A stretch of 64,000 bases of DNA from Leptolyngbyaceae cyanobacterium (GTDB lineage: Bacteria > Cyanobacteriota > Cyanobacteriia > Phormidesmidales > Phormidesmidaceae): NCBI GenBank assembly GCA_965263355.1, contig CBDHHL010000032.1, positions 448,001-512,000 on the forward strand, read 5' to 3'. The notes below the pieces were generated by a model, which saw nothing but the letters and a program-made list of their open reading frames with translations, searched no databases and had not been told where the DNA came from. Shown one piece after another: positions 41,537 through 64,000 of this stretch. The position numbers were made by a program, and so were the translations under genes. Position 1 is the stretch's first letter, and every line of letters starts with the position of its first letter.

Positions 41537-41606
41537 ACTTGGTTCACGTCCAGAACTGTAGTCTTGCTGTAGAGAAAACTCCAGGTTTCAACTTGGACGT
41601 GGTTTA
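41534..41606 (+). repeat. MITE-like family A copy filling the gap between two convergent genes
   Basis: TAAACTTGGTTCACGTCCAG...GGTTTCAACTTGGACGTGGTTTA; both ends coincide with TAA stop codons. Confidence 0.8.
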
Positions 41607-42155
41607 GAAATCATCCAACACATCAAGATCAATATCCTCATCTTCAAGCATGTCGGACAGGGATGTTGGATTAGCATCAATGGGCTTAGGCGATGTTATG
41701 TTTTCAAACATAGCTTCATGGGCTTGGGCCGAGTGGCCATTGGTCGAGTGGCCATTAGTTGAATGGCCGTTAGCCGAGTGGCCATTAACTGACGCATAGT
41801 CATTATTTGAAGCGGCTGCGCCCCCTCCTCCCAGGGATTCACTCAACTTGGGCCCGTAGGCCTCGCCAGTTAAAAAATGTCGTCGGATCTGAAAAATTCT
41901 AAACTCCAGTTCGTCGATGGCATTGCGAGCTATTACTTGGGCTTCTTCTTTGGAGACATCGTCTTCATAGGCCCAAGGTAGATAGTAGGCTTTCAGTGCC
42001 CGCACGACCGACTCTCGCATGTTCACCATTTTGTTGTCGCGCAGATAGTTAACGATGCGCCCTTCAACGGTGTCAGGGTCAGAACTAATGCTAAAAGAAA
42101 CGCGTTTTCTGGTGGCAGGTACTTCTTTCTTAGGGGTGCTTTTCTTTTTAACCAT
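41604..42155 (-). CDS. Hypothetical protein, ParR-like partner of the actin-like ATPase; contains 15 bp (NGHSA/T) tandem repeats
   Basis: Start overlaps the parM stop by 8 bp; basic N-terminus with beta-strand RVSFSI then helices; acidic tail. Confidence 0.6.
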   Translation of the reverse strand: MVKKKSTPKKEVPATRKRVSFSISSDPDTVEGRIVNYLRDNKMVNMRESVVRALKAYYLPWAYEDDVSKEEAQVIARNAIDELEFRIFQIRRHFLTGEAYGPKLSESLGGGGAAASNNDYASVNGHSANGHSTNGHSTNGHSAQAHEAMFENITSPKPIDANPTSLSDMLEDEDIDLDVLDDF

Positions 42156-44293: not shown

Positions 44294-45287
44294 GGTAGTC
44301 CATTTTAGTAAAGGTCAGAGAAAATTAGGGGGTGAGCAGAGTCAATCAATCTCTCCCTAACCAATCGGTTGTACTCGTGGATGAAGGTCCAAATCGCACC
44401 ACTGTGGTTCTCCAGCTTATTCGAGAACGACAGTGGGTATCGCACCAGGCACGATACCCACTGTCGTAGCGTGTTGTTCAACCGCTCAATATAACTGGTT
44501 AATCCGCTATCTTTGTCCACCGCAAAGTGACGATTGCTTGGAATGATCGTTTCGTAAGCGTCCCAATGATCAGTGTAGACCTTGGCACACTGTCGGTAAA
44601 CACCGGGTAAGGATTGCCATAATTGCAGGACCGATGCCCGTGAACGGTCTCCGATATGACATCCCAGAATTTCTCTAAGTAGGTAGGCAAAATAACTTAC
44701 ACAAGAACTTTTCAAGGATGACACTTTTGAAAAGGCCCCCAACCCCCAATTCTGGGGGGCTTCGGAACTTAAAGTCCCCCAGAATTGGGGGATTTAGGAG
44801 GCTTCCAGGATTTTGAAATTAATTGTGCTCATCTATTTAGTATCTGCATCCGTCACCGGCCAGACCCACTGCTTATTGTCTTTGTCATCCAACAAACGAC
44901 CACAGTTCGTCTATCTGCACCGTCAGCTTGCCCTTGGGCTTAGGTACTACCGACGCACTTTCTTGGGAACCGTCGCATAGGTAGCGTTAACGTATGCTTG
45001 GAGCCATCGCTCTGAAACCTGGGTGACTCGGGCGATACCAGCCAATGGAATCTTCTCAAGCAGTAGCAAGTCGACCAAGCCAAAGGTGTCTTTATCTTTA
45101 GGTTTCCACTGAGGGTCTTCGACAAACTGTCGCCCTCAGTCCTTGCATTTGTAGTTCTGCTTGGCACGACGAGTCAGACCGTTTTTGATAATGTCATGGG
45201 AGCCGCAAGTCAGACACGTCATTCCCGTTTATTTGAGATCCTTTTGGGATTTTAAAGGCTAAGTCTGATATCTGATGCACCACTTAC
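44294..45287 (-). mobile_element. Degenerate IS1-family element (insA/insB pseudogene)
   Basis: MTCLTCGSHDIIKNG...KQNYKCKD zinc finger; YTDHW..Y, IERLNNTLRQ, LSFS; ends GGTAGTCC / GCACCACTTAC; frameshifts and stops. Confidence 0.85.
44676..44839. mobile_element. ~160 bp MITE inserted in the IS1 insB gene, TA target duplication
   Basis: TA|AGTAGGTAGGCAAAATAA...TTAATTGTGCTCATCTATT|TA; removing it restores DADTREILGCHIG. Confidence 0.8.
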
Positions 45288-45328: not shown

Positions 45329-45649
45329 TCAAGCAGCTAAAACCTTAGACTCAAATTCTTGTTGATCTATAAAAGTTTTAAAGACTCGATCCATTTTTGT
45401 TAGTTCAAAGATGATTTTGACCTGCTCTGTCAGGCCGCAAAGATAAATCTGCTTCCCTTTGGCTCGAACAAGTTTTAGCATAGCGACCATGGCACCAATA
45501 CCAGTACTGTTCATAAATGTCACCTGTTTCATATCTAACAGAAAAATATCAATATCCTGATGTAGTAAGTCACTTACTTGAAGCTTGAGTTCGTTAGTTG
45601 TAGCACCATCTAGAATGCCTGTTGGTTCAAGTTTTTTAAGGTTAGCCAT
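45329..45649 (-). CDS. STAS anti-sigma-factor antagonist
   Basis: GILD, LLDMKQVTFMNSTGIG (conserved Ser), IFELTKMDRVF; AGGAG RBS. Confidence 0.92.
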   Translation of the reverse strand: MANLKKLEPTGILDGATTNELKLQVSDLLHQDIDIFLLDMKQVTFMNSTGIGAMVAMLKLVRAKGKQIYLCGLTEQVKIIFELTKMDRVFKTFIDQQEFESKVLAA

Positions 45650-45803
45650 TGTCGAAAGGATCTCCTAAATTGCGACAGTAATGTACTGAAAGATATTAGG
45701 CTAGAAGCTGGGTGCCTCTGATTGTGGCACTTAGTTGTGTCGTAGGAACTACAAAAATACTTTTGGTGAATTTTGTAGAAAGAACGGCCTCAAAAGTTAT
45801 GGC

Positions 45804-48206
45804 TTAAGAGACTGTCTCGGGTTGCCAATAGGCTGCCCGGATAACAACCCAAAGTAACGCTAAGTGATAGCATCCCCATCCAACATTGACCAGGTATGTT
45901 AAGGGATCTGGCCATTGTCCTAAAATTAGCTGTATTAGTCCCCACAGCATACCTGCAATAGTAAGGGTAAAAACAATTAACTGTATGCGTACAAGCCCCC
46001 AAAACACCCCAGATTTTCGTTGCTTGGGTGTAACCTTAAATGAGACTTTTTTACCAGTCAAAACACTCCAAACAGCCTGAATTTGCAATGGAAAAAGAGC
46101 GATAGCATATTGTTCATTACGCCATATTTCTTGTTTGGGCACTTCCCATGCTGCAGCCAGTAAGTTAAGACGGTTAATCAGATAAGTTGGGGCAAAGTGT
46201 AGTATAAATGCTGGGCCATAACTAGTCACAGGGCTAAGCCCTGTAAAGAATGAAATAATTGGGCAGACTAAAAAGATAATTACAAAAAAGCCTGCAAAAT
46301 AGCTGTACATCGTCTGAAAATACTGAAGCCGTTGCCAGAATGTGAGACCTGACTTGAATAAAGGATTATCTCTGACTAGTACCTGTATGGTTCCTTGAGC
46401 CCAGCGTAATTTTTGGGTTAGCGTGGAACTGAGGTCGTCAGGGGCAAGTCCCTCTGCCAAAACTTCATGGTGATAAACAGATTGCCAGCCAGCTGAATGG
46501 AGGCGCATCGCTGTATTCATGTCTTCTGTAATACTAATGCTTGAGACTCCACCAATTAGATCAAATTCATCCAATCGGCTTTCATCAGCTGCAAAATCAT
46601 CAGCAAAATGCTGCAATCCCATACTCACCAACGCTTCTCGTCGTAAAATTGCATTAGTTCCGGTATAAAAGGCGGCATTCATGCCATCCTTAGCTTGTTG
46701 AATAGGGCCATAGAAAAAATGAGCGTCATGGCCAAAGGGATCACCTTTAGGTAAGTTGTAAAATGCCTGAGGAGTCTGCACAAAGGCAACTTTATTTAAC
46801 TCATAGCGCCCTTGATCCAAATTAAAGTGGAAAAAGTTAGGCAGTACCCGCTGCAAAAATTGCGGCTTAGGAATATGGTCTGCATCTAAAGTAACAATAA
46901 AGTCACCCTGGGTTTCACCACAGAAAATAGCATGGTTAATATTCCCTGCTTTAGCATGGTGAGGACGATCTTTAGGCTTTTTGCGGGCAATGTAGCGACA
47001 ACGAGCTAAATCACTTAAAGCAAAGGTTTTCTTATCAATTTGTGCCTCTAACTTACGAATATTTGCTTCCAGCATTGCAGTTGCAGTAGAGTTTTCTGAC
47101 TGACTGAGTAACAGCAGCTGTCGTAGGCTTTGTATGTGCCCTTGAGTTTGCCAAGATTTCGAGTCTTCTAAGGAATCCTTTGAAACAAATTTCTTAATCA
47201 TTATCAGACAGTTGCGATCATCGGGATCACGGACATATGCCAAATGATCTGCAAGCTGTCTCAAAATGCTGATGCCACGACCACGTTCTGCATCTTGATC
47301 AATTTCATCCGGTAGTGTTTGCAAATGTTTCTCAAAATCAAAGGGAGCACCTCGATCCCAAATTCGTATGATAATTGCGAAGTTAAGAATGACGACTTCT
47401 AAATCGATCGGAGTCTCTGATACCAGATGCTTGTGGGCATGACTGACTACATTATCGAATCCTTCACCTAATAAGGTTTGAGCTGAAAACCAAGCATCGT
47501 CAGGGATTATAGACTGTTTTAGGGTGCTAAACCAATCCATGATTGACTCTAATTCATTAAAATCGGTTTTCACTCGAATTTTTTGACAGCTGAGATTCTT
47601 TTCTACAGTTTCTAAATCCTGTCGTAGATACTGTATTTGCTCTAGACGGCTGCTTAAATAATAGCGTTCAGCCTCTATCTGTTCAGCTGTGAGCTGTAAG
47701 GCAGGTGACTTAAGGTCTAGAAGACAGAGTTGTTCTGCCATAGCTCGCATATCCGGAGAATTTCCATCATCCAGTATATAAATCCGCAGCTTATTGGCAG
47801 GATAGGCCATCTTTAAAGCCGATTCCGCCGTTTCTTTGACAATGTCAACGGGCTCACTATAACAAGTGATAAAAATATCAACAGTTGGATAGTTAGCTTT
47901 CGGTAACGTTGGGGTGAGTTGATCAAGGTTTTTGACCCGACGCTCAATCGGTCGCCATAGCCCAACTAAAAAAAGTACGCCGCCAACGAACATGTATACT
48001 TCAGCTAATACCAGCGGCACTGAAAACCAGAGAGCATCTGTATTGAGGGACTGAGTTAACCGCCACTGCAAATACCATGCACCAACAATTAGATTTACTA
48101 AAACCAAGTAACGAAAAAGTAAGGTGCGATCGCGCAAACGCACTTGGATATTGTTCATCAGTGGTTTCTGATCCAGCTGACTAATAAAGCTACTCATTAT
48201 CAACAA
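45804..48206 (-). CDS. Cellulose-synthase-like processive GT2 with an inserted RsbW-type HATPase domain and no PilZ domain
   Basis: DDG, HAKAGN, DADH, QTPQ, GTN, TED, QKLRW, FKVTPK; insert contains EGFDNVVSHAH, IWDRGAPFD, ERGRG. Confidence 0.9.
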   Translation of the reverse strand: MLIMSSFISQLDQKPLMNNIQVRLRDRTLLFRYLVLVNLIVGAWYLQWRLTQSLNTDALWFSVPLVLAEVYMFVGGVLFLVGLWRPIERRVKNLDQLTPTLPKANYPTVDIFITCYSEPVDIVKETAESALKMAYPANKLRIYILDDGNSPDMRAMAEQLCLLDLKSPALQLTAEQIEAERYYLSSRLEQIQYLRQDLETVEKNLSCQKIRVKTDFNELESIMDWFSTLKQSIIPDDAWFSAQTLLGEGFDNVVSHAHKHLVSETPIDLEVVILNFAIIIRIWDRGAPFDFEKHLQTLPDEIDQDAERGRGISILRQLADHLAYVRDPDDRNCLIMIKKFVSKDSLEDSKSWQTQGHIQSLRQLLLLSQSENSTATAMLEANIRKLEAQIDKKTFALSDLARCRYIARKKPKDRPHHAKAGNINHAIFCGETQGDFIVTLDADHIPKPQFLQRVLPNFFHFNLDQGRYELNKVAFVQTPQAFYNLPKGDPFGHDAHFFYGPIQQAKDGMNAAFYTGTNAILRREALVSMGLQHFADDFAADESRLDEFDLIGGVSSISITEDMNTAMRLHSAGWQSVYHHEVLAEGLAPDDLSSTLTQKLRWAQGTIQVLVRDNPLFKSGLTFWQRLQYFQTMYSYFAGFFVIIFLVCPIISFFTGLSPVTSYGPAFILHFAPTYLINRLNLLAAAWEVPKQEIWRNEQYAIALFPLQIQAVWSVLTGKKVSFKVTPKQRKSGVFWGLVRIQLIVFTLTIAGMLWGLIQLILGQWPDPLTYLVNVGWGCYHLALLWVVIRAAYWQPETVS

Positions 48207-48509
48207 AAAATAATTATGTAAGTGACTCTAGGTTCTCTAAATTAATTGCCTCTATATTTCCATGACTCTCAAGCTCTTGAATCACATTAAGATTGAAAGT
48301 CAATTCCTAGTAATGGCAGCAGTAGACGCCTAAGTTAACAATCATTTGTGGGGCAGTACTAATGAGTTTTCCCGTTAGTCTAAATGGATGAACAATATTA
48401 CTTTATTAACCCCTAGAACCATAATGTTTTATTATCTGATGAGGTTGTAGACATCATTATTAAGCCTTTTACTCAGAAGACTGGTACGCCCCATGAACAT
48501 GGGCAATGC

Positions 48510-50246
48510 TTAACCATTGTCACCGATCAATAAACCAATAAGTCCAATGAGCGAAGCATTATAGTCGATAGCATATTCATTCGTTGCATACGACTTCTCA
48601 TCATCTAAGTAACTCAATATACCTAAGCCTTTTGGAGCAATATTATCTTGAGCATCAGAATTCGGACCTCCAACGACTAGACCAGGAATCAGTAAGCCTT
48701 TAGCACGGGCAAATAGATGGTTTACATGACGTACTGGACGAGCCCCAATACCTGTCACAAAAGTTTGATTAAAAGGATTACGACCTAGTAAGAAATGAAG
48801 CTGATCTAACGCAGCAATTTGGTAACGCTGATCCTGACTAATCTGGTATGCATAGACTAGGGTAATCCCCTCTTCTGCTGCCAGTTTATTAGAGCCCCAG
48901 ATAAAACGATGATTGGCTAAGCGGTAACCGTTATTTTCGACCCTCGCTAGAATCTCATTAGCTCTTTCTAGTAACTTTTTGTCAATGATGGCTTGAAACT
49001 CTCGTGAAATAGGCTGCCGCTGCTGCAATCGGTAATCTACTAACGCTAACGGTGATAAATTTTTCCATTCAAATAAGGTATAGGGGATCTTGGGTAAATA
49101 GAGTTCTACATACTGTTGGTATTTTTTAGCTCCAGTTGAAATATAGAGTTCTGTAGCTGCCCAGAAACGGTCATCAATATCAGTGTTAAGACTCTCTTCT
49201 TGATCAATATCTGAACCCAAGTATTTTCCTGAACCGCTATCATCACTTTCGATCCAATCAACCTGCATAGTAGATTGATTCTCCAAGTATTGCCAGGCTA
49301 GGTTTGCAGCGGTTTGATATTGATTAGCAAGGTTAGAATCAAATGTTTCAAAGACTCGGGCGGCCATGGCCATGACACCAGCAAACTTACCTGTTTCAGG
49401 GGTAGAAATCCCATAGATATAACGAATTTGTCGATCTTCATCAGGTGCTAATCCAATGGGCCATTCTGTTCCAGAAAGTTTTCGATAGACACCCCCATCG
49501 GACCGCTGCATCCTTAACATCCAGTCCAGTCCAAATTTCATTTCATCTAGAATATCGGGAGTGCCGTTACCGCTTTCTGGAATTGTCAATTGTCTATCCC
49601 AAAATAGACTGGGATTTTGTTCATAAAGACTCAGAATACGGGCAATCGTTGTCGCAGTTGTGGCAACATACTTGCCATAATCTCCTGCATCATGCCAGCC
49701 TCCTGTTGCGTCGATTTGATCGCTTGCTTGGTGTAAGTCATCGGCACGAGCTAAGTTGTGATCGTATAAGTGACAAGGAGCGTGGTACAAACCTGTAATA
49801 GGATCGTCTAGAATGACGCCACAACGTTGTAAATAATAAGATCTTAGCAATGATATAAATGTTGCTTGGTATGCATTAGTAGAAATACTAAATGGAGCAG
49901 ACTCTACAGAACCTGCTCGGACTAAGTATTCTCCAGGTTGCCGGAAATCACTCAAGTCAACGGATTGCAAGTTATCTCCACTCAGATGATCAGCCTGTAC
50001 TACAGTAGGTGTATCTAGTTCACTTATCTGTCCATCAGTTAAGCTAACCAACTCCAGAGGGATACTCTTAGGAGCATTGGCTAAAAAGACAACTTTTGGC
50101 CATTGTGGATGATATCCCACTTGGTTTAATAATACTTTCATAGGAGATTTCGGAGACTGAGCTTGCCCTGAAAATTTTGTACTACAAGCAATAATTAGAA
50201 AAATTGCAATGGTTGTTAAAATTAGGAGTTTATAAATACGTTGCAT
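48510..50246 (-). CDS. GH9 endoglucanase with Ig-like domain, putative lipoprotein
   Basis: NQVGY, YYLQRCG, GGWHDAGDYGKY, DD..WA, GRNP, TNEYAIDYNA; IIAC lipobox-like. Confidence 0.92.
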   Translation of the reverse strand: MQRIYKLLILTTIAIFLIIACSTKFSGQAQSPKSPMKVLLNQVGYHPQWPKVVFLANAPKSIPLELVSLTDGQISELDTPTVVQADHLSGDNLQSVDLSDFRQPGEYLVRAGSVESAPFSISTNAYQATFISLLRSYYLQRCGVILDDPITGLYHAPCHLYDHNLARADDLHQASDQIDATGGWHDAGDYGKYVATTATTIARILSLYEQNPSLFWDRQLTIPESGNGTPDILDEMKFGLDWMLRMQRSDGGVYRKLSGTEWPIGLAPDEDRQIRYIYGISTPETGKFAGVMAMAARVFETFDSNLANQYQTAANLAWQYLENQSTMQVDWIESDDSGSGKYLGSDIDQEESLNTDIDDRFWAATELYISTGAKKYQQYVELYLPKIPYTLFEWKNLSPLALVDYRLQQRQPISREFQAIIDKKLLERANEILARVENNGYRLANHRFIWGSNKLAAEEGITLVYAYQISQDQRYQIAALDQLHFLLGRNPFNQTFVTGIGARPVRHVNHLFARAKGLLIPGLVVGGPNSDAQDNIAPKGLGILSYLDDEKSYATNEYAIDYNASLIGLIGLLIGDNG

Positions 50247-50486: not shown

Positions 50487-52907
50487 TTAGCTAGATCCTT
50501 TAACGGAATTATGGCTAGTTGTAGGAGGGATAATTTGGAATAAGAACGAATTATCTGCTAGGAAGTTGTCGTGATCATCATGCAGAGTTACTGTGAACTC
50601 ATATTCACCCAATTGAGTAGGGGTATAGTGTGCTATCTCCAAACGTTGATTACTATCAGCAGCTACGTTATAGGTAAAGTGTTTAGTAGCAATCACCTCA
50701 TTTTGATAACTAAGCGTAAAGGTTATCTGTGTATTTGGAAAATCTTTCCATAGATCATTAATTATCCATACTGGCAAATCGACATTCTCACCAATATGCC
50801 AGTTCTGTTGAGTCCACTCGATACTCGGTAGCAATGGTTGATAGGCACGTCTAAGAGACTCAAAGGCAAGTTTTGGTGTGCGCCAATAGTCTACAATTCC
50901 CCAATTAATTGAAGGCCAGTTTTCAGTAAACATGAACTGGAAAATACCTGAAACCGGCTGATATTTCTGTCTCCGATAAGCTTCCGCAGCAAACTGGTTA
51001 ACTAAGGCCTGATACTGTTGAGTGTTCTTAACAAATTCGCTAGGGCTTTCCCCCATAGTTACTTGAGCTAGATTAAATGTCTCATGTTGCTGAAAATTGT
51101 GATATTCCCATTTAGCCCAGTCATGTTCGTTATCTGGCCAGAGTTCATCTTCTGAAAAGATACGACGAAGTGCACTAATACTGGGTAAAGCCTGGGCTCC
51201 AAATTCAGTAATCAGGGGTTCTTCTGTTGATTCAGCATACTTTTCAAACGTATTTGAATACCACCCCCACCATGGATGTTCTGAAGTTAACGAGGCTTTA
51301 TGTAAATAACGAGACGAATCGTATCCCTTTAAGGCATTGAACAGCGCACGGTCAAGCTGATAGTTTTGTTTAGGATTATAGGTCTTATATTTATATTGCA
51401 TCCAGTCTGCATCCCAGGGTGGTTCATTATGCATACTCCAGGCAAATATAGATGGGTGGTTATACAGTGTGTGGATCATCGCTTTCCCCTGACGAATTGC
51501 TTCTTTTTGGAAACTGCTGTCATCCACATATCCCCATTGCAAGGGGAAGTCTTGCCAAACTAAGATGCCGTTGCGATCGCATCCTTCATAAAACTCTTTA
51601 CCCGTAACATGAGCATGCACCCTGACTGCATTAATATTAGCTTTTTTTATCAGGCCAATATCAAAAAGATATTTATCTGCAGTCATTTCGCTCAGCCACT
51701 GGCTGGCTATGTAGTTAGTCCCTCGTAAAAATAATCTCTTTCCATTTAGTTTCCAGATCTGTTGTTTTTGATCCCACTCTACGGAACGAAAGCCAAAAAC
51801 AGTTTCATGTTGATCTAAAATCTTTGTAGAGTCAGTAATTTCTAACTTAAGACGATATAGATTGGGCTCACCATGCTCCCAGTCCCACCAAAGTTTAGGG
51901 TGGTCTTGCTTTAGATTAATTTTAAAAGAATTATACTTTGGATGAATACGACGTTGAATACGCACATGTTCCCCAGGATTACCTAAAAAATTTTCAGGCA
52001 TCAATTGAACATCCAAGGTAATTTTCTCGTTTTGTGTCCCTTGATAGTCAAGATTTATATCTAGCTCTGCTGTTGCCTCATTACTATTGTGATTCAATTT
52101 GGGTGTCACTCGTACATTATCAATTGCTAGCGTATATGAGCTTTTCAGGTAAACAGGGGCCCAAATACCTCCGGTATTTTTTTCTTGACCACGGTCTGTC
52201 CAAGCTCCTCCAGGACGAGTATCGTGATGAGTAAAAATTCCTTTAATAAGACGTTTATGTAAAGACCAATCCTGTCTCTGTTCTTCTAGGGGACTATTAA
52301 CTCGAACCATTAAAATATTTGAACCGTTTGAGTTTAGAAATCGATCAACTTGAAAATCGAAAGGTTCAAAGTAGCCCTGGTGTGAACCTAGATAATGACC
52401 ATTTAGCCAGACATCAGCTTCATAATCTACCCCCTCAAATACAAGCTTGACGACATTATCTCCAGGCATCAAACTCGGAGGCACTTCAAAAGCACGCTGA
52501 TACCACACAACACCATGCAGGTCCTGCCCCTGCAGATACCAGTTACCAGGCACATAAAGAGTTTGCCAGGTTATGTTTGTAAAATCAGGTAAAACCTCAT
52601 TGTGGGGAGCAAGGAGATATGAAGATTCATTTTGCTGCTCAATTGTCTCAGCCCAAAATTTCCAATCCCCATTTAAGGAAAACTGGTTGTTAATGTCATG
52701 ACCATTAGGCATAAAATGAGCATTAACCAATGACGTCGATTGAAAATTAAGACCCAGCACAGCTAAAATCACAACAATAGCAATGACTACTCGTTGACTT
52801 CCGAGCATAAGTTTACGAGTTATCCTAATAATCATTTTTATTTTTTCTTTCGCTATAAGGGCTTCCTTAGCATCTTTTCCCATTGAGACTAATCTTTCTG
52901 GCAGCAA
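50487..52907 (-). CDS. GH2 glycoside hydrolase (beta-mannosidase/galactosidase-like)
   Basis: SLNGDW, FEGVDY..VWLNG, GIW.PV, NAVRVHAH, WQDF, HPSI..W..HNEP, TEFG; true start may lie downstream. Confidence 0.9.
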   Translation of the reverse strand: MLPERLVSMGKDAKEALIAKEKIKMIIRITRKLMLGSQRVVIAIVVILAVLGLNFQSTSLVNAHFMPNGHDINNQFSLNGDWKFWAETIEQQNESSYLLAPHNEVLPDFTNITWQTLYVPGNWYLQGQDLHGVVWYQRAFEVPPSLMPGDNVVKLVFEGVDYEADVWLNGHYLGSHQGYFEPFDFQVDRFLNSNGSNILMVRVNSPLEEQRQDWSLHKRLIKGIFTHHDTRPGGAWTDRGQEKNTGGIWAPVYLKSSYTLAIDNVRVTPKLNHNSNEATAELDINLDYQGTQNEKITLDVQLMPENFLGNPGEHVRIQRRIHPKYNSFKINLKQDHPKLWWDWEHGEPNLYRLKLEITDSTKILDQHETVFGFRSVEWDQKQQIWKLNGKRLFLRGTNYIASQWLSEMTADKYLFDIGLIKKANINAVRVHAHVTGKEFYEGCDRNGILVWQDFPLQWGYVDDSSFQKEAIRQGKAMIHTLYNHPSIFAWSMHNEPPWDADWMQYKYKTYNPKQNYQLDRALFNALKGYDSSRYLHKASLTSEHPWWGWYSNTFEKYAESTEEPLITEFGAQALPSISALRRIFSEDELWPDNEHDWAKWEYHNFQQHETFNLAQVTMGESPSEFVKNTQQYQALVNQFAAEAYRRQKYQPVSGIFQFMFTENWPSINWGIVDYWRTPKLAFESLRRAYQPLLPSIEWTQQNWHIGENVDLPVWIINDLWKDFPNTQITFTLSYQNEVIATKHFTYNVAADSNQRLEIAHYTPTQLGEYEFTVTLHDDHDNFLADNSFLFQIIPPTTSHNSVKGSS

Positions 52908-53131: not shown

Positions 53132-56068
53132 CTATTCAATCATTGTTTGAAGGAGTCTTATTCCTTCACTAAGAGCCTCTTCAAGCTTTGGAATACAATT
53201 TTCAAGCACCATATTCCCAGCACGACTTTCATTCTCGATATCTTGACACAGATGTTGGACTGCAACCATGCCCAGTGCTGCGCTACTCGACTTTAAGGTA
53301 TGGGCCGCATAAGCAATTTGTTCAATATCTTGAGCATGTACAGCATTTTTAAGAGATTTTGCCAGCTGGGGACTTTCCTTTAAGTAAATCTCAACAAATA
53401 ATTTTAGATTTTCAGGCGTCAATCCACCTAAAGGAGCCAATGTCTTTTCTAGGATACTTTTATCCAGATAAGTTATCTGGTTATCAGTACCTAATACCGC
53501 TGAGGGTTCCTGGGAATCACCAAGTGTTTTATCAGAGGCGATATCCTCAAGCTGTGGAGCAGGATAAGAGTTTTCAATGGAGCAGCGTTCTAAAGCCTCT
53601 AGCAGTTCTTCAATTTGGAGAGGTTTACTAATATAGTCATCCATACCCGCTGCCAGAAATTTCTCCCGGTCTCCTGTCATAGCATTGGCTGTCACTGCAA
53701 TGATGTAAGGCTGCTCATCCTCTGACCATGATTGCCGGATGGCCTTTGTCGCGGCTAAACCGTCCATTTCCGGCATTTGAATATCCATCAAAATGACATC
53801 GTATGCTTGGCGTTTTAGACAGTCGAGTACCTCTAATCCATTGCTAACTAAGTCCGGACGGTATCCCAATTTAGCCAACCATTGCTGAGCAAGCTGTTGG
53901 TTCACCATATTATCTTCAGCTACCAAAATCTTACATGGCAACCTTTGGGCCATTGTACTATCTATCTGTTTGCCCTTGGTTACTAGGGGTTGGTAAGTTA
54001 CTTTACCCGTAATGCCATAGGTCAAAGCATTGTACAGATCATTTTGACGGCATGGCTTATTTAGAAAAACAGCAATTCCTGCCCGCAATGCTTTTTCCTT
54101 AAGATCATAAGTACGGACAGAAGTAAGCATTATCATTGGTAAATTAGGGCACTGATGCTTTAGTTTTGAAGCCAACGTTAGACCATCCATGCCCGGCATT
54201 TGCATGTCTAAAATAGCAACATCAAAAGGCCGTTCTATTTGCCCAATTACGCCTAAGGCCTCGTAGCCTGATCGAGCCGAAAATACATCCATCTCCCATT
54301 GTTCTACTTGATGAGTGAGGATCTTGCGATTAGTCTCATTATCATCCACAAGTAACAACCGCTTACCCTTAAGTTCAACTCTTGGCAGTTCTGAATTAAT
54401 CTCTGAAATAGCCTGGGCTTTGATAGTAAAGAAAAATTTTGATCCCTTATTCAGCTCACTCTCAACCCAAATATCTCCTCCCATGGCGTGACAAAGACGT
54501 CTACTAATCGCCAGCCCCAAGCCAGTCCCCCCATATTTACGTGTAGTTGATGAGTCAACTTGTTGAAATGCGTCAAAAAGCGACTCTACCCGATCTGCTG
54601 GAATTCCGATACCAGTGTCACTTACACAACAGCGAATAAGATATAGGGCTTTATCAGAAGTAGCCTCATCTGATATGGGCTCCGCAAAAACCCTGATCAC
54701 AATTTCACCTTCGTGGGTAAATTTAATAGCATTACCTAATAAATTCACTAGAATTTGGCGTAGCCTTGTTACGTCCCCAACCAAGCTCACAGGCACATCC
54801 AAATCAATCTGGTAGGCTAGTTCTAGCCGCTTTTCAGATGCCTTGGGTACAACTAAATCCAAACACTCTTCAATACAGGACCTTAAATTAAAAGGGCATT
54901 CTTCTAACTCTAGTTTGCCAGATTCGATTTTAGAAAAGTCAAGAATATCGTTAATAATACGTAGCAGGCTGTCACCACTATGACGAATAGTAGACGCAAA
55001 GCCAATTTGTTGATCATTGAGCTCAGTATCTAGCAACAGGCCCGTCATACCAATCACCCCATTCATGGGTGTACGAATTTCATGGCTCATGGTAGCCAGG
55101 AAATCACTTTTGGCCTGTGCAGCGGCTTCGGCTATATCTTTTGCTTCTTTAAGAGATTGTTCACGGGTAACTACCTCGTAGGCCATATGTTGAAAGGCAC
55201 GGGCAAGTTCTCCAGGTTCATCTGATCGTTTAGCAATAGGATTTAGAATAGTAAATTTCTGTTGCCAGTCGTCTAAAGTGGGAAGTGAACTTCCACGGAC
55301 CTGTTTTGCTAAATGGGTGAGTTTTTTCAGGGGGTGAACCACCTTCTGTTTTAGTAAGCGGTTCATAAGGAATATGATTGTAGCCATTATGCCAATAATG
55401 ATGGCCATAACCAGCTTCAGGTAATGGTACCCCTGCTGTAGTAACGTATCAGCAGGAATATAAATGGTTTGAGCAGCAACTACTTCGTTTAATTTCCAGT
55501 TATATCCTTGTTTACTGCCATAGGTCTTTATCATGCTTTGGGGAGCATCATCGACACGGCCATGACATTCTAAACAACTACTTTTCTTAATGGCTAAAGG
55601 ACGAGCTATATAAAAAAGCTCCTTACCATCCTGTTCTCGATATCCACTAAGTTCTTCAGGGGCATCATCCTGGCGAAAAGCATTGACTATATTGGTTTCA
55701 AAGTCATCTGCCTGGTCCCTAGGGTTTGATGGATTTAACGTCGCTTCTTTATATAGAAAATTACTATACTCAGGAGATTCTCGAAAATGTTCAAATACTT
55801 CTCTAGCACCATAGGCCGGTACAGTTTCTCTGATAAATGAGCTAGATTGAGCTAACTGATCAGCCAGTTGGGGTTTGATGCTTTCGCTTGTATAGTTCCG
55901 CACGGCATTCATGGTTTGAATCATCATATGTGCCCGTGCTTTGATCTCGACTTTGGCCAGCTGTTGCATTGCGCTAGAAAGTGCAAGGCCGCTAATGACT
56001 ATCCCACCAATAAAAACGATAGTAAAAAACAGTGTGAACTGTCTATTCAGCGTTTGATTTTTGGCCAT
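53132..56068 (-). CDS. Hybrid sensor kinase: DUF3365 (CxxCH)-HAMP-HisKA-HATPase-REC-REC-HPt
   Basis: [40 protein letters not shown]. Confidence 0.92.
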
Positions 56069-56291: not shown

Positions 56292-58131
56292 TTACGCGAA
56301 GAATGAGAACCCTGCTCCAAAATTATTGATAACTTGCTGGTCTAAAACAGCAATTAACTCATTTTGGTTAGGCGATGTCTGATACCATAATTCAGTGGAG
56401 GCACCATCAGAAGAGATACCTAACTGATAAGCTGCAGCAGCATCTACTAGCTGAACAGTATCCTGTTGCAGGTCAAAGTCTGTAATAAGAGCATAGTCCA
56501 ATAACCCTAAGCTTGTACTGTCACCATCATCATAGAAAAGTTGACCTGCCTCACCTAGAACAAAGAGATCTGCCCCACTGCCACCCGTTAGAGTATCGAT
56601 TTCTCCCAGACCGGCATTGACCGTATCAGTACCGGTTAGGGTATCATCGCCGCTACCACCTAGGAGCGTGTTATTCCCATATCCACCTTGGAGAATGTCA
56701 TTACCTGCTTCACCGGCAATGTGGCCCAGTGCCTTTGAGAGGGTGTCATCCTTAGATCCCCCATGAAGAGTTCCTTCCTTATCTTGGTAAACGCGAATAT
56801 AATCAATTTCAAAAGCACTGGTCTCAGGCGTTGTCTCATCGGGGTTACCAGGCCAGTAACCACCGACAGCCATATTGGCTAATAGATACATAGAGACATC
56901 GGGAATATCATGGTCAATGCTATACAGGGCCTGATCGTCCACAAACCAGGTTAGTTCGTCAGCCGTCCATTCCACACCAAATGTATGAAAGCCAGCGGAG
57001 AAGTCCATACCGCTAAAGGTTTGCTCACCTTTTTCTAGGGCAATATTACCATTGTCGTCTGTGTAGTGGAGACTGTTGAACACCGTGTCAGTACGGTGCC
57101 CCAGGGTTTCCACGATGTCAATCTCAGGGGGCCAACCACCATGGGTAGGTAGCATCCAAAAGGCAGGCCATAGCCCCTGACCTGCAGCGACTTGAGCCCG
57201 CATTTCCATATAGCCATAGGTAAAGGCGTAGTTATCGTCACTGTTTAGGATGCCGGAGGTATAATCAAAGGTTTTAACCGGATAAAAGCCAGTAACTGTG
57301 TCTTGAACATCAAGGGTAAGGGGCTGATCAAGCTTTTCACTAACGATACTCAAGACACCGTCGTTAAAATCAAAGGCATCATACTCTACGCCGTCAATAA
57401 CCTCATTCTCTCCCACATAGGCCTGATGTTCACCGTTCCAGGGGTTAGTGCGACCACCGTAGACATTGTGACTATATTTGGTGCTCCACTTGCTACTGTC
57501 CAGGGTAGACAAATCAAACTCATCACTAAATACTAGTTCCCAATCGCTCTAAGGTGTCATTACCATCGCCGCCGAAAATGGTGTCATTATGTTCATCTCC
57601 CTGAATAAAGTCGTCCCCCCCATTGCCATAGAGAGTGTCTTCGTCTTCACCACCAGAAATTTCATCGTTATCGTTCCCCCCAAAGATGCGATCGCGACCA
57701 CGACCACCCCTTAATTTATTCCGACCACCCTCACCAAAGATCTCATCATCGCCATCATTGCTATCTATTTCGTCATCCCCCTCTCCACCAAAGAGTCTAT
57801 CGCGACCATTGCCACCTCGGATGCGATCACGACCATGGCCACCAAAGATTTCGTCATCGCCATCATCGCCATCTATTTTGTCATGACCCTCCCCACAAAA
57901 AAGTTTATCTTTGCCACGACCGCCAAAGAGACTATCGTTACCTAGACCTCCATAAACCTCGTCATCACCATCGTCTCCAAACAATGTGTCATTGCCGTTA
58001 TAACCATAAAGCCTATCGTTGCCACCTTTCCCTCGGACTTCATAGTCAACGTTGTCCTCCTATCCACCCCAAACATCATCACCGTCGTTAAGGTAAGAGA
58101 TGATTTTTCTTATTCTGGAAATTAGTGACAT
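56292..58131 (-). pseudogene. RTX-repeat GH16 beta-glucanase gene broken by a nonsense codon and a frameshift
   Basis: ATG 58131, TAG at 58060-58062, GGxGxD repeats, frameshift near 57547 just before DWELVFSDEFD; intact WPAFW and EIDIVE. Confidence 0.8.
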
Positions 58132-58592: not shown

Positions 58593-59933
58593 ATGTTGCC
58601 TAGCAATTGCCCCCTCACATTTTTAAGGCTTACTGACTATCCGTGGAGGCAGTATTTTTTTTTGTGCCTGTTCCTTAGTGGTGTGATTTTCTCAGAAAAG
58701 GCGTGGGCCAAACCAGAATTGGAGGATTCAGTCCCCTACACCTTGCCAGCGAATATCGAAGCGTTATCCGATTTTTCAACATTACCAGTTTCGGAGTTAG
58801 AGATAACGTCAATACCCTATACGTTGCCGCCATCTGATTTATATACTTTAGAAGCTAGGGAAGCTGCCATAAATAGCAATCTGGAACTCAACTACAACCC
58901 AGAAAACACGGATGTTTTATACCTGGCTGCTCCGGAAAATCTTAACCCAGGTCTTTACATTCCACCACCGGTTGAGCCATTACCCGACGCCTCATCTCCA
59001 GAACCAGAAGAGTCTGAATCGGTTATGCCAGATTCTGAAGCTGTTGAATCTACAGAGTCTCCCTTTATTCCAATTTGGGAAGTCGATGGTTTAACGGTTA
59101 ATTTATCGGATGACTTTAGCAATTTTGATCAGGGTAATCGAATTATTGAACCAACTGTAACAGGTACGTTGCCCAATGGGGATAGCCTTGCCATCACCAC
59201 AGGTTTTAATAGGTATGCTCAACCAGATGTTGATACTGTCTTTAATATTCCTCTCAAGGCATCATGGACTGGAGAAATGGGCAACTTTACCACAAAGGCT
59301 GGGGGAGGTGTGGATCTCTTTAATCAGTTGCCGCTTGCCCTTAATCTTAATGCGAGTACATCTGTGCCCATAGGAAAGAAAGCTACACTTTCCTTCTTTG
59401 TAGACTATGAGCCCTATAAGTTTAATGCCACTACTATCAATAATCAGATAAAAGCCTGGCGATATGGTCCCAATCTGTATTGGCAGATTACTCCTGATAT
59501 GTACCTTTTTTCCCTGGTACGCTGGGGGCGCTACAACGATGGCAATCAAGAACAACAATCGTTTAGTCGAGTAGAAAAGAAACTCGGAGATTTTTATGTC
59601 GCCGGTAATTTGTTTACCTGGCAGTATCGAGAAGACGCTGAATCTGCCAGTGGCTACTTTTCGCCTCCTGATTTTTTAGTTACCAACGCTGAAGTTGGTT
59701 GGAAAGGAGAAGTTTTAGATTGGCTGGACTGTGGTGCAGCAGCTTCTTGGGGACGACAACGACTAAACAGCAGTTGGGCGTCAGCTTATAGTTACAACGC
59801 CAAATGCACCTTTGAGATTGCAGAGTCCCTTGAAATGGATTTGGGATATGCCTTTAGTAATGTGATTGCTCAAACAGGTGGCAGTGCCTTTAATAACCGT
59901 GCAATTACAGGCCAGGTGCGTGCTAAATTTTAA
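58593..59933 (+). CDS. Putative outer-membrane beta-barrel protein (polysaccharide export porin-like)
   Basis: Signal-like N-terminus, Pro/Glu linker, amphipathic strands, GYFSP motif, terminal Phe. Confidence 0.65.
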   Translation: MLPSNCPLTFLRLTDYPWRQYFFLCLFLSGVIFSEKAWAKPELEDSVPYTLPANIEALSDFSTLPVSELEITSIPYTLPPSDLYTLEAREAAINSNLELNYNPENTDVLYLAAPENLNPGLYIPPPVEPLPDASSPEPEESESVMPDSEAVESTESPFIPIWEVDGLTVNLSDDFSNFDQGNRIIEPTVTGTLPNGDSLAITTGFNRYAQPDVDTVFNIPLKASWTGEMGNFTTKAGGGVDLFNQLPLALNLNASTSVPIGKKATLSFFVDYEPYKFNATTINNQIKAWRYGPNLYWQITPDMYLFSLVRWGRYNDGNQEQQSFSRVEKKLGDFYVAGNLFTWQYREDAESASGYFSPPDFLVTNAEVGWKGEVLDWLDCGAAASWGRQRLNSSWASAYSYNAKCTFEIAESLEMDLGYAFSNVIAQTGGSAFNNRAITGQVRAKF

Positions 59934-60248: not shown

Positions 60249-63200
60249 ATGGGCTCAAAATCAAACTCTTCTGTTATTGATAATGTCCTGAGGGGCAGTG
60301 TCTTCAGTGATGTCCTCATCGGTCTAGAATTCAACGATGAGATTCAAGGATATGAGGAGAATGATGTTTGGCTGAGTGGTGAAGCCGGTAATGATCTGGT
60401 AGTCGGTGGGGCTGGTAATGATATTTTGTCAGGTGGTGAGGGAAATGATTTACTGCATGGAGATTTTTCGGAAGGAAGTGGTTGGGAGTTAGGTGATGAC
60501 GGTAATTATTCGTATACTCCTCTGAATTTTGTTACTAATTCGCTACAAAGTAGTGGATACGATGAGGCGTTTCCTCCTGGCGATAATTTAGCTATTTACA
60601 ACGATTTGATATTTGGTGGTTTGGGCAATGACATCATTCTTGGTAGTTGGGGCGATGATGCTATCTCAGGCGGCTTAGGTAATGACATTATCAATGGTGG
60701 CATTGGTAATGACTATTGGCTTGCAGGTGGAGCTGGCAACGACACTATCAATGGAGATGATGGGCACGACATTCTAGAGGGTGGAGCTGGCAACGATATT
60801 CTGAATGGTGGTAATGGTAACGATATTCTGACTGGTGGGACAGGTCAGGATACTCTTTATGCAGGCGATGGTGAAGATATCGCTGATGGTGGCGAGGGCT
60901 CTGACCTGGTTGACGGTGGGGATGGAAATGATCAGCTGACTGGTGGCCTTGGCAATGACAAGATTTTAGGTGGAGACGGGCATGACACCATGGATGGTGG
61001 GGATGGCGAAGATACTCTCATTGGCGGGGCCGGTGACGACTACTCCATGCTTGGCGGCAGTGGCAATGATGCCCTCTACGGTGAGGCTGGCCATGATTTT
61101 ATGGATGGTGGTGCTGGCAATGATGTCATGTACGGTGGCCGTGAAGATGATGTCATGCTGGGTGGTGAGGGTACTGACCATATCTACGGAGGGGAAGGCA
61201 TTGATCGTATCGATGGCGGTGCTGGTGTTGATGTGATCGAGGGTAACTCGGGTGATGATGACATCCACGGGGGAGATAACGATGATGAGATCGCAGGCGG
61301 CACCGGTCAAGACATCCTCTACGGTGACGCTGGTAATGACATTGTGAATGGCGGCGAAGGCCATGACTTTATAGATGGTGGCGAAGGCTCTGACACCCTG
61401 GACGGTAGTGCTGGCATGGATGTCATTGAAGGCGGCTCTGGTAATGACCTGATCCGTGGCGGTGCTGACAACGACAGCTGGTTATCCGGTGGCGCTGGCC
61501 AAGATGAGATATATGGTGATGCCGGTGACGATGTACTGTCCGGCGGTGACGATAATGACCAGCTCCAGGGCGGCATCGGAAATGACGTTCTTATGGGAGA
61601 TGGGGGCAACGACGTTCTCCTAGGTGGAGAAGGCGATGATTACTGGCTTGATGGGGGCGACGGTAATGACACTATTAACGCTGGTGCGGGCCATGATGTC
61701 GCCACGGGTGGAGTTGGTGATGATGTTGTTATCGGTGATGACGGTAATGACACCCTTTTAGGGGATACCGGTAACGATCAGCTTTTTGGTGACGCTGGTG
61801 ACGATATTCTCGATGGGGGTGACGGTGCGGACCGCCTCGAAGGGGATATCGGTAATGACACCCTCAAAGGGGGCGACGGTGCTGACCTGATCCGGGGTGG
61901 TGACGGGGTTGATTATGTTGAAGGCGGAGCGGGTGACGATAACATTACTGGCGATGCAGGTGACGATAGCCTACTGGGGGATGCAGGCGCTGACATTGTG
62001 GATGGGGGCACTGGTCACGATTACCTGGCCGGGGGAGCTGGGGCAGACATTCTGATCGGCGGTGCTGATAACGACACTATTCAAGCTGGAGACGACAACG
62101 ACACTCTCTACGGTGATGATGGTTACGACATTCTAGAAGGGGGCGACGGTAGTGACACCCTCAGTGGCGGTAACCAGGAGGATATTCTCAAAGGAGACGC
62201 TGGTAACGATGTTTTAGATGGGGGTGATGGCCATGATGTTTTAGACGGTGGGGCCGACAATGATTTACTCCAGGGGCAAACCGGTAATGATGCATTGACT
62301 GGTGATACAGGCAATGACACCCTGCAGGGTGGTCTCGGTGATGACTACCTCAGTGGCGGTGCTGATAATGATGTGCTTGAAGGCGGTGCCGGTATTGATG
62401 TCCTAGAAGGCGGTGACGGAGCCGATGCGCTCTATGGGGGAGCTGGTGATGATGGCTGGTTATCTGGACAAACTGGCGCTGATATCATTGATGGCGGTGC
62501 TGGCCATGATGTGTTGAGCGGTGGTGCTGGTGTCGATCAATTGCAAGGAGGAGCTGGCAATGACACCGTCTTCTTTGATGCCGCTGACACCGTAGTCAAG
62601 GGAGATGCAGGCTACGATGTGGCCATTGTGGAAACCGCTGACGGTGCTAGTTTAGACCTGGGCGCGAACAGCTTTAACGAGGCCCATGGTAATGCCGGTA
62701 ACGACACCTTTACTAATACGAATGGAGCAGGTGGTCCCAGCAGTGAGAGTGTTGCCATGTTTGGTAATGCCGGAGATGACGCCCTAACAGGTGGCTCTGC
62801 TAATGATTACCTAGATGCTGGTGCAGGAAATGACGTTGCCAGTGGCGGAGCGGGTGATGACTACGCTCTGGGTGGTGAAGGGGCAGATGCCCTTGGTGGA
62901 GACGCAGGCAACGATCTTCTAAAGGGTAACGCGGGCAACGATACGTTGGAGGGTGGTGATGGCCACGACACTATTGATGGCGGTGATGGAGCGGATATTC
63001 TTCTCGGTGGAGCAGGGCACGACACTGTAAAATTTGATGCGGCAGATACGGTAGACGGCGGTGCTGGTTACGATGTCGCCAAAGCCCAGGGAGATGTTGG
63101 TGTCACTCTAGATTTAGGCGCTAGCCAGATTGAGTTGGCCTACGGGACAGAAGGGGCTGATGTCTTTACCAATTCCAGTAACAACAGCGTTGAAATTCAT

Positions 63201-64000
63201 GGAGAAGGGGGTAACGACACCATCATTGGGGGAACTGGCCATGAGATTTTAGAGGGTGGTGCTGGGGATGATGAGATCGCAGCCGGAACTGGCAATGACG
63301 TCGTTCTAGGCGGTACCGGAGACGATGACCTCCAGGGAGAGGGCGGCAACGACACCATCACAGGTGGAGAAGGCGCTGATACTCTCTCCGGAGGCGACGG
63401 CAATGACACCCTGAATTTTGACGCCAATGACATCCTGGACGGCGGCAGCGGCAGTGATGTTGGTGTTTACCAGGGAACTACTGGCATTAACCTCAACATT
63501 GATGACGTCAGCCTGGAAGAAATTCACGGCAATATTGGGGATGACACCTTTAAATCAACCGTCGGTAATGCGGTCAAGATTTTCAGTGGTGCTGGTAACG
63601 ACACCCTAGAAACTGGTAACGGTAACGATCAGCTCTTTGGTGGCAAAGGTGACGACACCATTATATCCACAGGTGGTCACAACTACATCGAGGGTGGCAC
63701 AGGCAGCGATACCATCACCACAGGTGACGGTAACGATACACTAGTGGCCGATGCTGGAGATGATGTTTTGGTAGCTGGTGATGGCCATGATGTCTTAAAG
63801 GGCGGCGCTGGTGCCGATAGTCTTAATGCAGGTGCTGGCAATGACACCCTCTACTTTGATGCTGACGACACATTGGTAGATGCAGGTGCTGGCAACGAAG
63901 ATACAGCCTATTACGAGAGCAGTGATGCTCTCACCATTGATTTGGATGCGACAGGTATTGAAACACTCCACAGTAATGCAGGTGACGATATTATCACGGC
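60249..64000 (+). CDS. Giant RTX/haemolysin-type Ca-binding repeat protein (>1250 aa, runs off the window)
   Basis: Own translation from ATG 60249; dozens of GGxGxDxL nonapeptides; same frame at the window end. Confidence 0.9.
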   Translation, partial: MGSKSNSSVIDNVLRGSVFSDVLIGLEFNDEIQGYEENDVWLSGEAGNDLVVGGAGNDILSGGEGNDLLHGDFSEGSGWELGDDGNYSYTPLNFVTNSLQSSGYDEAFPPGDNLAIYNDLIFGGLGNDIILGSWGDDAISGGLGNDIINGGIGNDYWLAGGAGNDTINGDDGHDILEGGAGNDILNGGNGNDILTGGTGQDTLYAGDGEDIADGGEGSDLVDGGDGNDQLTGGLGNDKILGGDGHDTMDGGDGEDTLIGGAGDDYSMLGGSGNDALYGEAGHDFMDGGAGNDVMYGGREDDVMLGGEGTDHIYGGEGIDRIDGGAGVDVIEGNSGDDDIHGGDNDDEIAGGTGQDILYGDAGNDIVNGGEGHDFIDGGEGSDTLDGSAGMDVIEGGSGNDLIRGGADNDSWLSGGAGQDEIYGDAGDDVLSGGDDNDQLQGGIGNDVLMGDGGNDVLLGGEGDDYWLDGGDGNDTINAGAGHDVATGGVGDDVVIGDDGNDTLLGDTGNDQLFGDAGDDILDGGDGADRLEGDIGNDTLKGGDGADLIRGGDGVDYVEGGAGDDNITGDAGDDSLLGDAGADIVDGGTGHDYLAGGAGADILIGGADNDTIQAGDDNDTLYGDDGYDILEGGDGSDTLSGGNQEDILKGDAGNDVLDGGDGHDVLDGGADNDLLQGQTGNDALTGDTGNDTLQGGLGDDYLSGGADNDVLEGGAGIDVLEGGDGADALYGGAGDDGWLSGQTGADIIDGGAGHDVLSGGAGVDQLQGGAGNDTVFFDAADTVVKGDAGYDVAIVETADGASLDLGANSFNEAHGNAGNDTFTNTNGAGGPSSESVAMFGNAGDDALTGGSANDYLDAGAGNDVASGGAGDDYALGGEGADALGGDAGNDLLKGNAGNDTLEGGDGHDTIDGGDGADILLGGAGHDTVKFDAADTVDGGAGYDVAKAQGDVGVTLDLGASQIELAYGTEGADVFTNSSNNSVEIHGEGGNDTIIGGTGHEILEGGAGDDEIAAGTGNDVVLGGTGDDDLQGEGGNDTITGGEGADTLSGGDGNDTLNFDANDILDGGSGSDVGVYQGTTGINLNIDDVSLEEIHGNIGDDTFKSTVGNAVKIFSGAGNDTLETGNGNDQLFGGKGDDTIISTGGHNYIEGGTGSDTITTGDGNDTLVADAGDDVLVAGDGHDVLKGGAGADSLNAGAGNDTLYFDADDTLVDAGAGNEDTAYYESSDALTIDLDATGIETLHSNAGDDIIT

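Follow-up and report, generated by a model that had tools for sequence, protein, structure and literature searches.

How is a processive cellulose synthase controlled if it lacks the PilZ domain through which cyclic di-guanosine monophosphate (c-di-GMP) acts on BcsA? The question is raised by a 64,000-nucleotide stretch of contig CBDHHL010000032.1 (positions 448,001 to 512,000; assembly GCA_965263355.1) from a Leptolyngbyaceae cyanobacterium, hereafter the window, in which a glycosyltransferase family 2 (GT2) synthase carries an RsbW/SpoIIAB-type kinase domain between two of its catalytic motifs and is followed by a gene for a STAS protein of the anti-anti-sigma type. The reading that we favour, with belief and doubt in about equal measure, is that this is a c-di-GMP-independent cellulose (beta-glucan) synthase gated post-translationally by its own dedicated serine partner switch, the kinase half of which is built into the enzyme. 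The features on which the argument turns are as follows.

45804..48206, minus strand: cellulose synthase (processive GT2, no PilZ), fused form of the cyanobacterial 'PCR-domain' (CcsA1) type, 800 aa from TTG
47583..47705, minus strand: outgoing stalk helix of ~41 residues from the glycosyltransferase domain to the kinase (AlphaFold helix 165-205; predicted local distance difference test score, pLDDT, ~90), retained in short forms
47187..47582, minus strand: nested RsbW/SpoIIAB-type GHKL kinase domain of 132 aa (aa 209-340), recognised by HATPase_c_2, fold and conservation
47013..47162, minus strand: two returning stalk helices leading to RYIAR/HAKAGN (AlphaFold helices 346-365 and 372-395), retained in short forms
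46023..46040, minus strand: motif FKVTPK of the gating loop, without an equivalent of the PilZ arginine by which the loop is tethered in BcsA
45329..45649, minus strand: single-domain STAS anti-anti-sigma-type protein of 106 aa with predicted phospho-acceptor Ser48 (Pfam 62 bits; TIGR00377 64.7, cut-off 53.45)

Residues of the synthase are counted from the TTG codon; its likely start is the ATG at 48197 (797 aa), three codons past the TTG and the start used by relatives. The protein scores 125.7 bits against Pfam Cellulose_synt, matches BcsA structures at E 1e-46 and carries the motifs DDG (47763-47771), HAKAGN (46941-46958), DADH (46875-46886), TED (46521-46529), QKLRW (46401-46415) and FKVTPK, that is, the D,D,D,QxxRW signature together with FxVTxK in a membrane protein by which CesA/BcsA-like processive GT2 enzymes are recognised. 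DADH, QTPQ, TED and QxxRW are each kept in 113/113 rows of an alignment of fused homologues comprising the window protein and 112 of its best 120 homologues (P0001, the window's own protein, and P0003, P0018, P0019, P0024, P0068, P0106 and P0112, mostly partial, were left out). No PilZ family appeared among the Pfam matches of the synthase. Its alignment to R. sphaeroides BcsA, interrupted between residues 158 and 410, extends to BcsA position 573, after which the window protein continues for 8 residues and stops ahead of the PilZ RxxxR motif; this motif was found in the last 40 aa of 0/113 fused homologues. The TIGR03030 score (310.7) is likewise under its cut-off of 699.1, placing the enzyme outside the c-di-GMP-gated BcsA class, which is defined by PilZ with RxxxR. 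In BcsA the gating loop is described as held by an R580-E371 bridge and freed by c-di-GMP (PMC8892547), and a synthase without such an arginine would therefore be either constitutively on or gated in some other way. The absence of PilZ, a helical U1-U2 insertion and orthology to A2118 and alr3757 assign the window enzyme to the 'with PCR domain' (CcsA1) class, and 38 cyanobacterial synthase rows form a clade with support 100/99.

The spacing between DDG and HAKAGN is 271 aa in the window synthase versus 26 aa in an E. coli plasmid BcsA, which gives an insert of ~245 aa. Within it Pfam recognises HATPase_c_2 at aa 219-338 (57.6 bits, cut-off 27.4, E 1.7e-15), and the marks of RsbW/SpoIIAB kinases are present: a HATPase_c_2 domain with Bergerat fold, an N-box with Glu/Asn/His (E248, N252, H256), a G1 DxG (D284, G286) and a G2 GxG (E307, G309, R310, G311). 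The NCBIfam RsbW score of the insert is 33.7, far under the equivalog cut-off of 145. Phmmer with the single insert returned no relevant match among solved structures, whereas a profile built from 26 inserts matched RsbW 6m36 (E 5.2e-10) and SpoIIAB (E ~4e-6); in the alignments to 6m36 and 1th8 the N-box, DxG and GxG line up. In an AlphaFold model made from the 113 rows (mean pLDDT 74.9; ~90 across most of the insert; <50 in parts of the catalytic core), a 41-residue helix is predicted to lead into the kinase fold and two helices to return, which would put the kinase at the tip of a stalk. The modelled kinase part superimposes on SpoIIAB 1til (Z 14.2, root-mean-square deviation (rmsd) 3.6, 131 aligned) and on RsbW (Z 12.9, rmsd 1.9, 104 aligned).

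Conservation extends to the presumed ATP site. E248, N252, D284, G286, R310 and G311 are identical in 113/113 aligned fused homologues, H256 is kept in 108/113 and G309 in 110/113, and among six close relatives the ratio of nonsynonymous to synonymous substitution rates (dN/dS) is 0.09 for the kinase, 0.013-0.07 for the core and 0.09-0.15 for the stalk. These patterns mark the insert as an intact domain of the RsbW/SpoIIAB-like kind that is subject to purifying selection. The homologue search retained 732 proteins among 7998 scored; the best 120 all carry PF13581, and the names given among them are all cyanobacterial. Because the kinase domain is present in 120/120 best homologues, the possibility that the fusion is an assembly chimera, which the earlier note had allowed for, is rejected. 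One contig of run X1 also covers 46107-49697 without difference; X1 may be the window's source and is hence not independent.

In the adjacent STAS protein, FMNSTG aligns with FMDSSG of SpoIIAA (1th8_B), and Ser48 (codon 45506-45508) is invariant in 25/25 STAS proteins aligned from fused loci. The preceding residue is Asn in 30/32 proteins from fused loci (two not parsed) and Asp in 38/40 from the short-form loci introduced below; since it follows kinship as well as synthase form, we do not count it as co-evolution. The three observations with which the earlier note began are thus confirmed by motif coordinates, Pfam matches and alignments: an 800-aa GT2 enzyme with all processive motifs and no PilZ, an RsbW-type HATPase flanked by helices between DDG and HAKAGN, and a co-oriented STAS gene that keeps its phospho-acceptor Ser.

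The distribution of these parts across genomes bears on what the kinase serves. The loci compared are the best 79 of 254 genome loci, a set biased towards the query, and comprise 38 fused and 41 short forms, with DDG-to-HAKAGN lengths of 266-297 aa and 124-142 aa, respectively. Short forms retain both stalk helices and only the kinase is missing. Where present, the insert is internal and in frame, at a single site in 36/36 aligned inserts, and it is retained across several cyanobacterial families. A free 138-aa HATPase_c_2 gene is found in 0/38 fused loci and in 31/36 short loci with 4 kb of flank, and these free cluster kinases are 39-45% identical to the window insert. The survey of STAS neighbours proposed in the earlier note placed a STAS gene within 1.5 kb downstream in 25/30 fused and 36/38 short loci with that much flank. 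PP2C genes occur in 12/38 fused and 35/41 short loci, and DUF3131 genes in 21/38 and 40/41.

As an unbiased check, we used 400 evenly sampled cyanobacterial genomes plus the centre, scoring 7-10 candidates per genome, so that counts are lower bounds. At least 21 short-form and at least 2 fused-form synthases (plus the centre) were found, the fused form being the rarer; by hand count, a free kinase lies within 7 kb of 19/21 short synthases, and the contigs of the remaining two end after the STAS gene. A sigma factor gene was found within ~11 kb of the synthase in 1/5 genomes tested. Outside the cyanobacteria, a 608-aa stalk-less, PilZ-less relative of the synthase is found together with STAS, free kinase and DUF3131 genes on plasmids of Paracoccus seriniphilus and Pseudooceanicola algae, and a receiver-phosphatase is visible in the Paracoccus locus, the sole alphaproteobacterial locus with flank reaching that far. 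The partner-switch genes of these clusters indicate that the link between the glucan system and the switch predates the fusion.

The G1 aspartate binds adenine in GHKL proteins. In the free cluster kinases (L034-L079, e.g. L060:12532-12948) this residue is Ser in 29/32, with Gly, Cys and Asp in one each; mostly lacking the aspartate, the Alr3760-like proteins may therefore be weak or dead kinases, the nested copies being canonical. Two further details of these loci were seen in passing: the fused synthase gene is broken by a frameshift or stop in two metagenome-assembled genomes (L020, L021), and in 11-12 Nostoc loci (L043-L078) a small Rab/Roc-like GTPase and an OmpA/BON protein come after the cluster's histidine kinase.

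One fused synthase is already the subject of published genetics, and the earlier note's remark that it knew of no characterised example no longer stands. P0121 (788 aa, ACB00100.1), which is 58.6% identical to the window synthase over 787 columns and scores 57.8 bits for HATPase_c_2, is CcsA of Synechococcus sp. PCC 7002 (PMC6433935). The PCC 7002 CesA, A2118, is given as 788 aa long, exceeding the Nostoc enzyme by an 'insertion of ~90 amino acids'; cells with the gene knocked out lack the cellulase-sensitive wall layer labelled by a cellulose-binding domain and grow slowly at low salt, and a fusion of CesA to yellow fluorescent protein (CesA-YFP) is uniform, not punctate (Zhao et al., 2015; PMC4851311). 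Locus L109 (genome G162) encodes the same sequence as P0121 in the order REC-PAS-PP2C, DUF3131, barrel, synthase, STAS, and the genome has a single synthase of this kind. A 2025 review classes A2118 as 'with PCR domain' (PMC12430437); its accessible text contains no mention of kinase, phosphoryl or sigma and proposes no mechanism by which PilZ-less cyanobacterial synthases would be activated, and that of PMC4851311 has no mention of kinase. The PCC 7002 CesA thus shares the window architecture, and its kinase domain is unrecognised in the accessible parts of its published accounts.

Anabaena PCC 7120 supplies the short-form counterpart. There alr3758, all3759 and alr3760, encoding STAS, REC-SpoIIE (396 aa) and HATPase_c_2 (138 aa) proteins (PMC13712970), come after alr3757, the CesA gene (PMC4192349), with the order and sizes of the short-form loci (STAS +, 396-aa phosphatase -, 138-aa kinase +). 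The cluster differs from the window in having its kinase as a free gene, and in most such kinases Ser replaces the G1 Asp. In the accessible parts of both accounts the three genes are listed as partner-switch parts or sigma regulators, unlinked to the synthase (PMC4192349; PMC13712970). In the open literature, to which the search was confined (subscription papers and the phylum-wide lists of PMC13712970 Table S1 lie outside this scope), we came across no report of a cellulose synthase that contains a kinase domain. Both the synthase family and partner switching are already known; their nested architecture is apparently undescribed in that literature.

Taken together, the complementary occurrence of inserted and free kinase, the steady STAS gene, the phosphatase and the scarcity of linked sigma genes point to the glucan machine as the output of the switch. 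Under the favoured reading, a signal passed through a histidine kinase would activate a REC-PP2C phosphatase. Unphosphorylated STAS would then bind the kinase domain stably and alter the pairing of synthase molecules through their stalks, turning synthesis on, and phosphorylation of STAS Ser48 by the insert would reset the switch. SpoIIAB/RsbW kinases act as dimers or oligomers, and it is for this reason that we propose stalk pairing, the weakest step of the scheme; with the kinase placed far out on the stalk, dimerisation or a movement of the stalk would be a likelier means of coupling than active-site contact. The polarity, with unphosphorylated STAS as the on state, is suggested by analogy with SypA, HmpV and All4160.

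Comparison with these and other known systems shows which elements are shared. SypA/SypE of Vibrio fischeri and HmpU/V/W of Nostoc punctiforme are described as sigma-less partner switches tied to polysaccharide output in which unphosphorylated STAS is active; they differ from the window system in that, as reported, their targets are unknown and the kinase is separate from the synthase. In Anabaena, the All4160/Alr3423/HenR partner-switching-like module controls a polysaccharide enzyme; the STAS domain of All4160 is fused to the enzyme and active when unphosphorylated, and Alr3760, one of five kinases tested, was not among the two that bound it (Harada et al., 2026; PMC13555669). The likeness would lie in a serine partner switch acting on a polysaccharide enzyme with a REC-SpoIIE phosphatase, and the difference lies in that All4160 joins STAS to a Bac_transf initiating transferase, whereas the window has a free STAS and a processive GT2 polymerase into which the kinase is built. 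With SpoIIAB/SpoIIAA/SpoIIE, RsbW/RsbV/RsbU and NfsS/NfsR (Anabaena) the window system shares the fold, the N-box, G1 and G2 boxes, the STAS Ser and, in related loci, a PP2C partner, but not a linked sigma factor, and its kinase is embedded in a membrane enzyme. With BcsA (R. sphaeroides 4HG6, E. coli 9FMZ; Z 24) it shares the GT2 core, D,D,D,QxxRW and FxVTxK; it differs in lacking PilZ and RxxxR and in its 245-aa insert, and DUF3131 proteins and a separate barrel gene replace BcsB and BcsC in related loci.

A number of observations weigh against gating by the switch. Binding and phosphorylation of STAS by the insert, and an effect of either on glucan synthesis, are predictions for every member of the family. 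The model places the kinase beyond a helix of 41 residues, which by helix rise would span ~60 A, and so long a stalk would make direct active-site contact within one molecule unlikely. Because short and proteobacterial forms use a free kinase, fusion is not needed for the link between synthase and switch; in 5/30 fused loci, moreover, no STAS gene is adjacent, and the demonstrated correspondence of the stalk to the plant-conserved region (P-CR) of plant CesA is one of position. Of the partner-switch parts, the window holds the kinase and a STAS protein with its Ser, and neither a PP2C nor a DUF3131 gene was found within its 64 kb. In the three closest genomes tested, PP2C lies 12-18 kb and the DUF3131 genes 9-27 kb upstream of the synthase, so the window's copies could fall past its end.

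Decayed relatives add to this side of the balance. A search with the DDG-HAKAGN stretch against 1.84 billion representatives (50% clusters) gave 429 matches, and among the best 150, which were examined, four metagenome proteins (P0134, P0136, P0138, P0146) have lost most or all synthase motifs with the kinase still scoring above its Pfam threshold; in P0140, which retains the kinase, two motifs are gone. Another decayed synthase with kinase (L110:8583-13383) lies beside STAS and REC-PP2C genes in genome G202, in which, at a completeness not given, DUF3131 was not found. In P0260 the synthase motifs are intact and the kinase at the stalk tip is half-decayed, possibly an intermediate of kinase loss. 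Judging from their sequences, pseudo-synthases that keep transmembrane helices, stalk and kinase are candidate membrane-anchored kinases or regulatory subunits. The earlier note's inference that STAS binding and phosphorylation take the place of c-di-GMP is accordingly strengthened in part, by an intact and selected kinase, a travelling STAS gene, phosphatases in many related loci and the free kinase of short forms; the long stalk and the five decayed synthases with kinase would also suit another target.

Such a target could lie outside the glucan machine altogether, with an ungated synthase that anchors the kinase in the membrane or senses activity on its behalf, and with the output directed to a membrane-held sigma factor or to a STAS target in transcription or export. 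Retention of the kinase in five or six decayed synthases, one of them beside STAS and PP2C genes, fits outward signalling of this kind, as does the modelled stalk length; related cyanobacterial kinases, NfsS and Slr1861 among them, bind sigma factors, RsbW-like kinases of cyanobacteria bind SigC/SigE, and sigma partners encoded away from the kinase are known there (PMC13712970), a further point against the synthase as target, and alr3758, the short-form STAS gene of Anabaena, has been interpreted as a HetR-dependent sigma regulator (PMC4192349). On the other hand, no conserved sigma gene accompanies the locus (one in 1/5 genomes tested), the switch travels with the glucan synthase and DUF3131 genes in two phyla, and the decayed synthases are single sequences from a 50%-cluster search, the best homologues being intact in 113/113. 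On the strength of the decayed synthases and the sigma-binding relatives we keep outward signalling as a tentative alternative, possible though doubtful.

Two other explanations concern the fusion itself. The kinase domain could serve chiefly for dimerisation and so for the organisation of synthase complexes, in the manner of the plant P-CR, STAS phosphorylation being incidental or tuning assembly. Its place in the same interval as the P-CR, the oligomeric habit of its relatives, the invariance of W225 and W239 and the near-invariance of F226 in the N-terminal helices all suit a structural role, and an RsbW tetramer has been described (PMC7340262). Invariant ATP-binding residues are not what such a role calls for, however, and 41/79 loci do without the insert and keep a free kinase; CesA-YFP in PCC 7002 is, moreover, uniform and not punctate (PMC4851311). 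We consider this account unlikely. Very improbable, in our judgement, is a neutral fusion of operon neighbours, in which a domain tolerated on a surface loop would act as a free kinase uncoupled from the synthase: both forms do occur, a decayed insert exists (P0260) and the fused form is the rarer (2 vs 21 in the 400-genome sample, both lower bounds), but in 36/36 aligned inserts the domain interrupts the synthase in frame at a single site, with no end-to-end read-through, and it has been kept across several cyanobacterial families.

In a tree that keeps part of the stalk, fused and short forms are separated by one change; in a tree without stalk and insert and with seven outgroups, the fused form needs at least two changes, and a single clade is not rejected (approximately unbiased test, p-AU 0.098). 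Free cluster kinases and inserts were not resolved as sisters in a 135-column tree. A simple history of fission or fusion is not established.

With plant CesA the stalk shares a helical insertion in the same interval, as the earlier note had pointed out, and the whole model finds its best match in aspen CesA8 8g2j (Z 26.9, rmsd 4.8, 493 aligned). The demonstrated correspondence is one of position: neither a sequence search nor two fold searches made with the short-form stalk matched the P-CR, a result that does not exclude homology. The short-form stalk model aligned 117-118 residues to plant CesA vs 102 to BcsA and otherwise matched generic hairpins; Foldseek gave rmsd values of 18-20. A second insertion of 19 residues relative to BcsA, at aa 528-546 (~46570-46625), stands at what we take to be the position of the plant CesA class-specific region; it falls between RREAL and the GG-TED segment, at a gap seen in the BcsA alignment. 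A more comprehensive scenario would make the synthase the 'sigma factor' of the switch and the cyanobacterial PCR helices a docking stalk for an RsbW-type kinase, covalent in fused forms and in trans in Nostoc-type ones, with STAS-switched kinase dimerisation assembling and disassembling synthase oligomers and the plant P-CR helices descending from the kinase-bearing stalk of CesA's cyanobacterial ancestor. Taken whole, we regard this scenario as improbable.

PilZ-less cyanobacterial synthases are the proposed sister group of plant CesA, and the partner switch is a specific candidate for their activation. It can be tested at once in PCC 7002, for which knockout, complementation and YFP fusion have been published, with Anabaena alr3757-alr3760 as the unfused control. 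If gating by the switch is correct, a kinase nested in a processive polysaccharide synthase would mirror the transferase fused to STAS that was described in 2026, and would offer a way to raise the native cellulose output of cyanobacteria.

Upstream of the synthase, the window contains the following further genes.

48510..50246, minus strand: GH9 endoglucanase with CelD_N domain and, by eye, an N-terminal export/lipoprotein-like signal; accessory (Pfam 266 bits; family F28, 6/80 loci)
50487..52907, minus strand: GH2 glycoside hydrolase; accessory (Pfam; family F48, in L001, L006 and the window)
53132..56068, minus strand: hybrid histidine kinase with Tll0287 sensor, HisKA, HATPase_c, two receivers and Hpt (Pfam)
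56292..57512, minus strand: GH16 glucanase with RTX calcium-binding repeats (domain matches; further repeats at 57526-57984)
58593..59933, plus strand: predicted outer-membrane beta-barrel, BcsC/PgaA-like as a lead only (no Pfam match; family F6, 33/80 loci)
60249..63998, plus strand: very large RTX-repeat protein with 33 HemolysinCabind stretches, running off the window

The hybrid histidine kinase, whose family (F5) occurs in 42/80 loci, is a candidate upstream input to a REC-PP2C phosphatase. The barrel protein, with Atlas feature matches of 0.98 to unnamed cyanobacterial clusters and 0.95 to a PgaA-barrel cluster, is by its sequence the probable glucan export channel. The product could be a mixed-linkage glucan, to judge from the GH16 neighbour, which resembles EglC below the cut-off. 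Promoter and terminator scans were at chance level (26 against 33.3 and 10 against 10.8, respectively).

Some minor features complete the description. Giant RTX proteins comparable to that of the window stand beside the barrel gene in L003, L006, L007 and L008. A broken IS1-type element (44305-45167) lies immediately downstream of the window STAS gene, and in its place L001, L003 and L006 have a hybrid histidine kinase. Farther along (41604-43263, minus strand), an actin-like protein with a weak ALP_N match and the small unknown gene after it form a ParM/ParR-like pair in what seems to be chromosomal DNA, and a methyltransferase-PhyH dioxygenase fusion is encoded at 34915-36378 on the plus strand.

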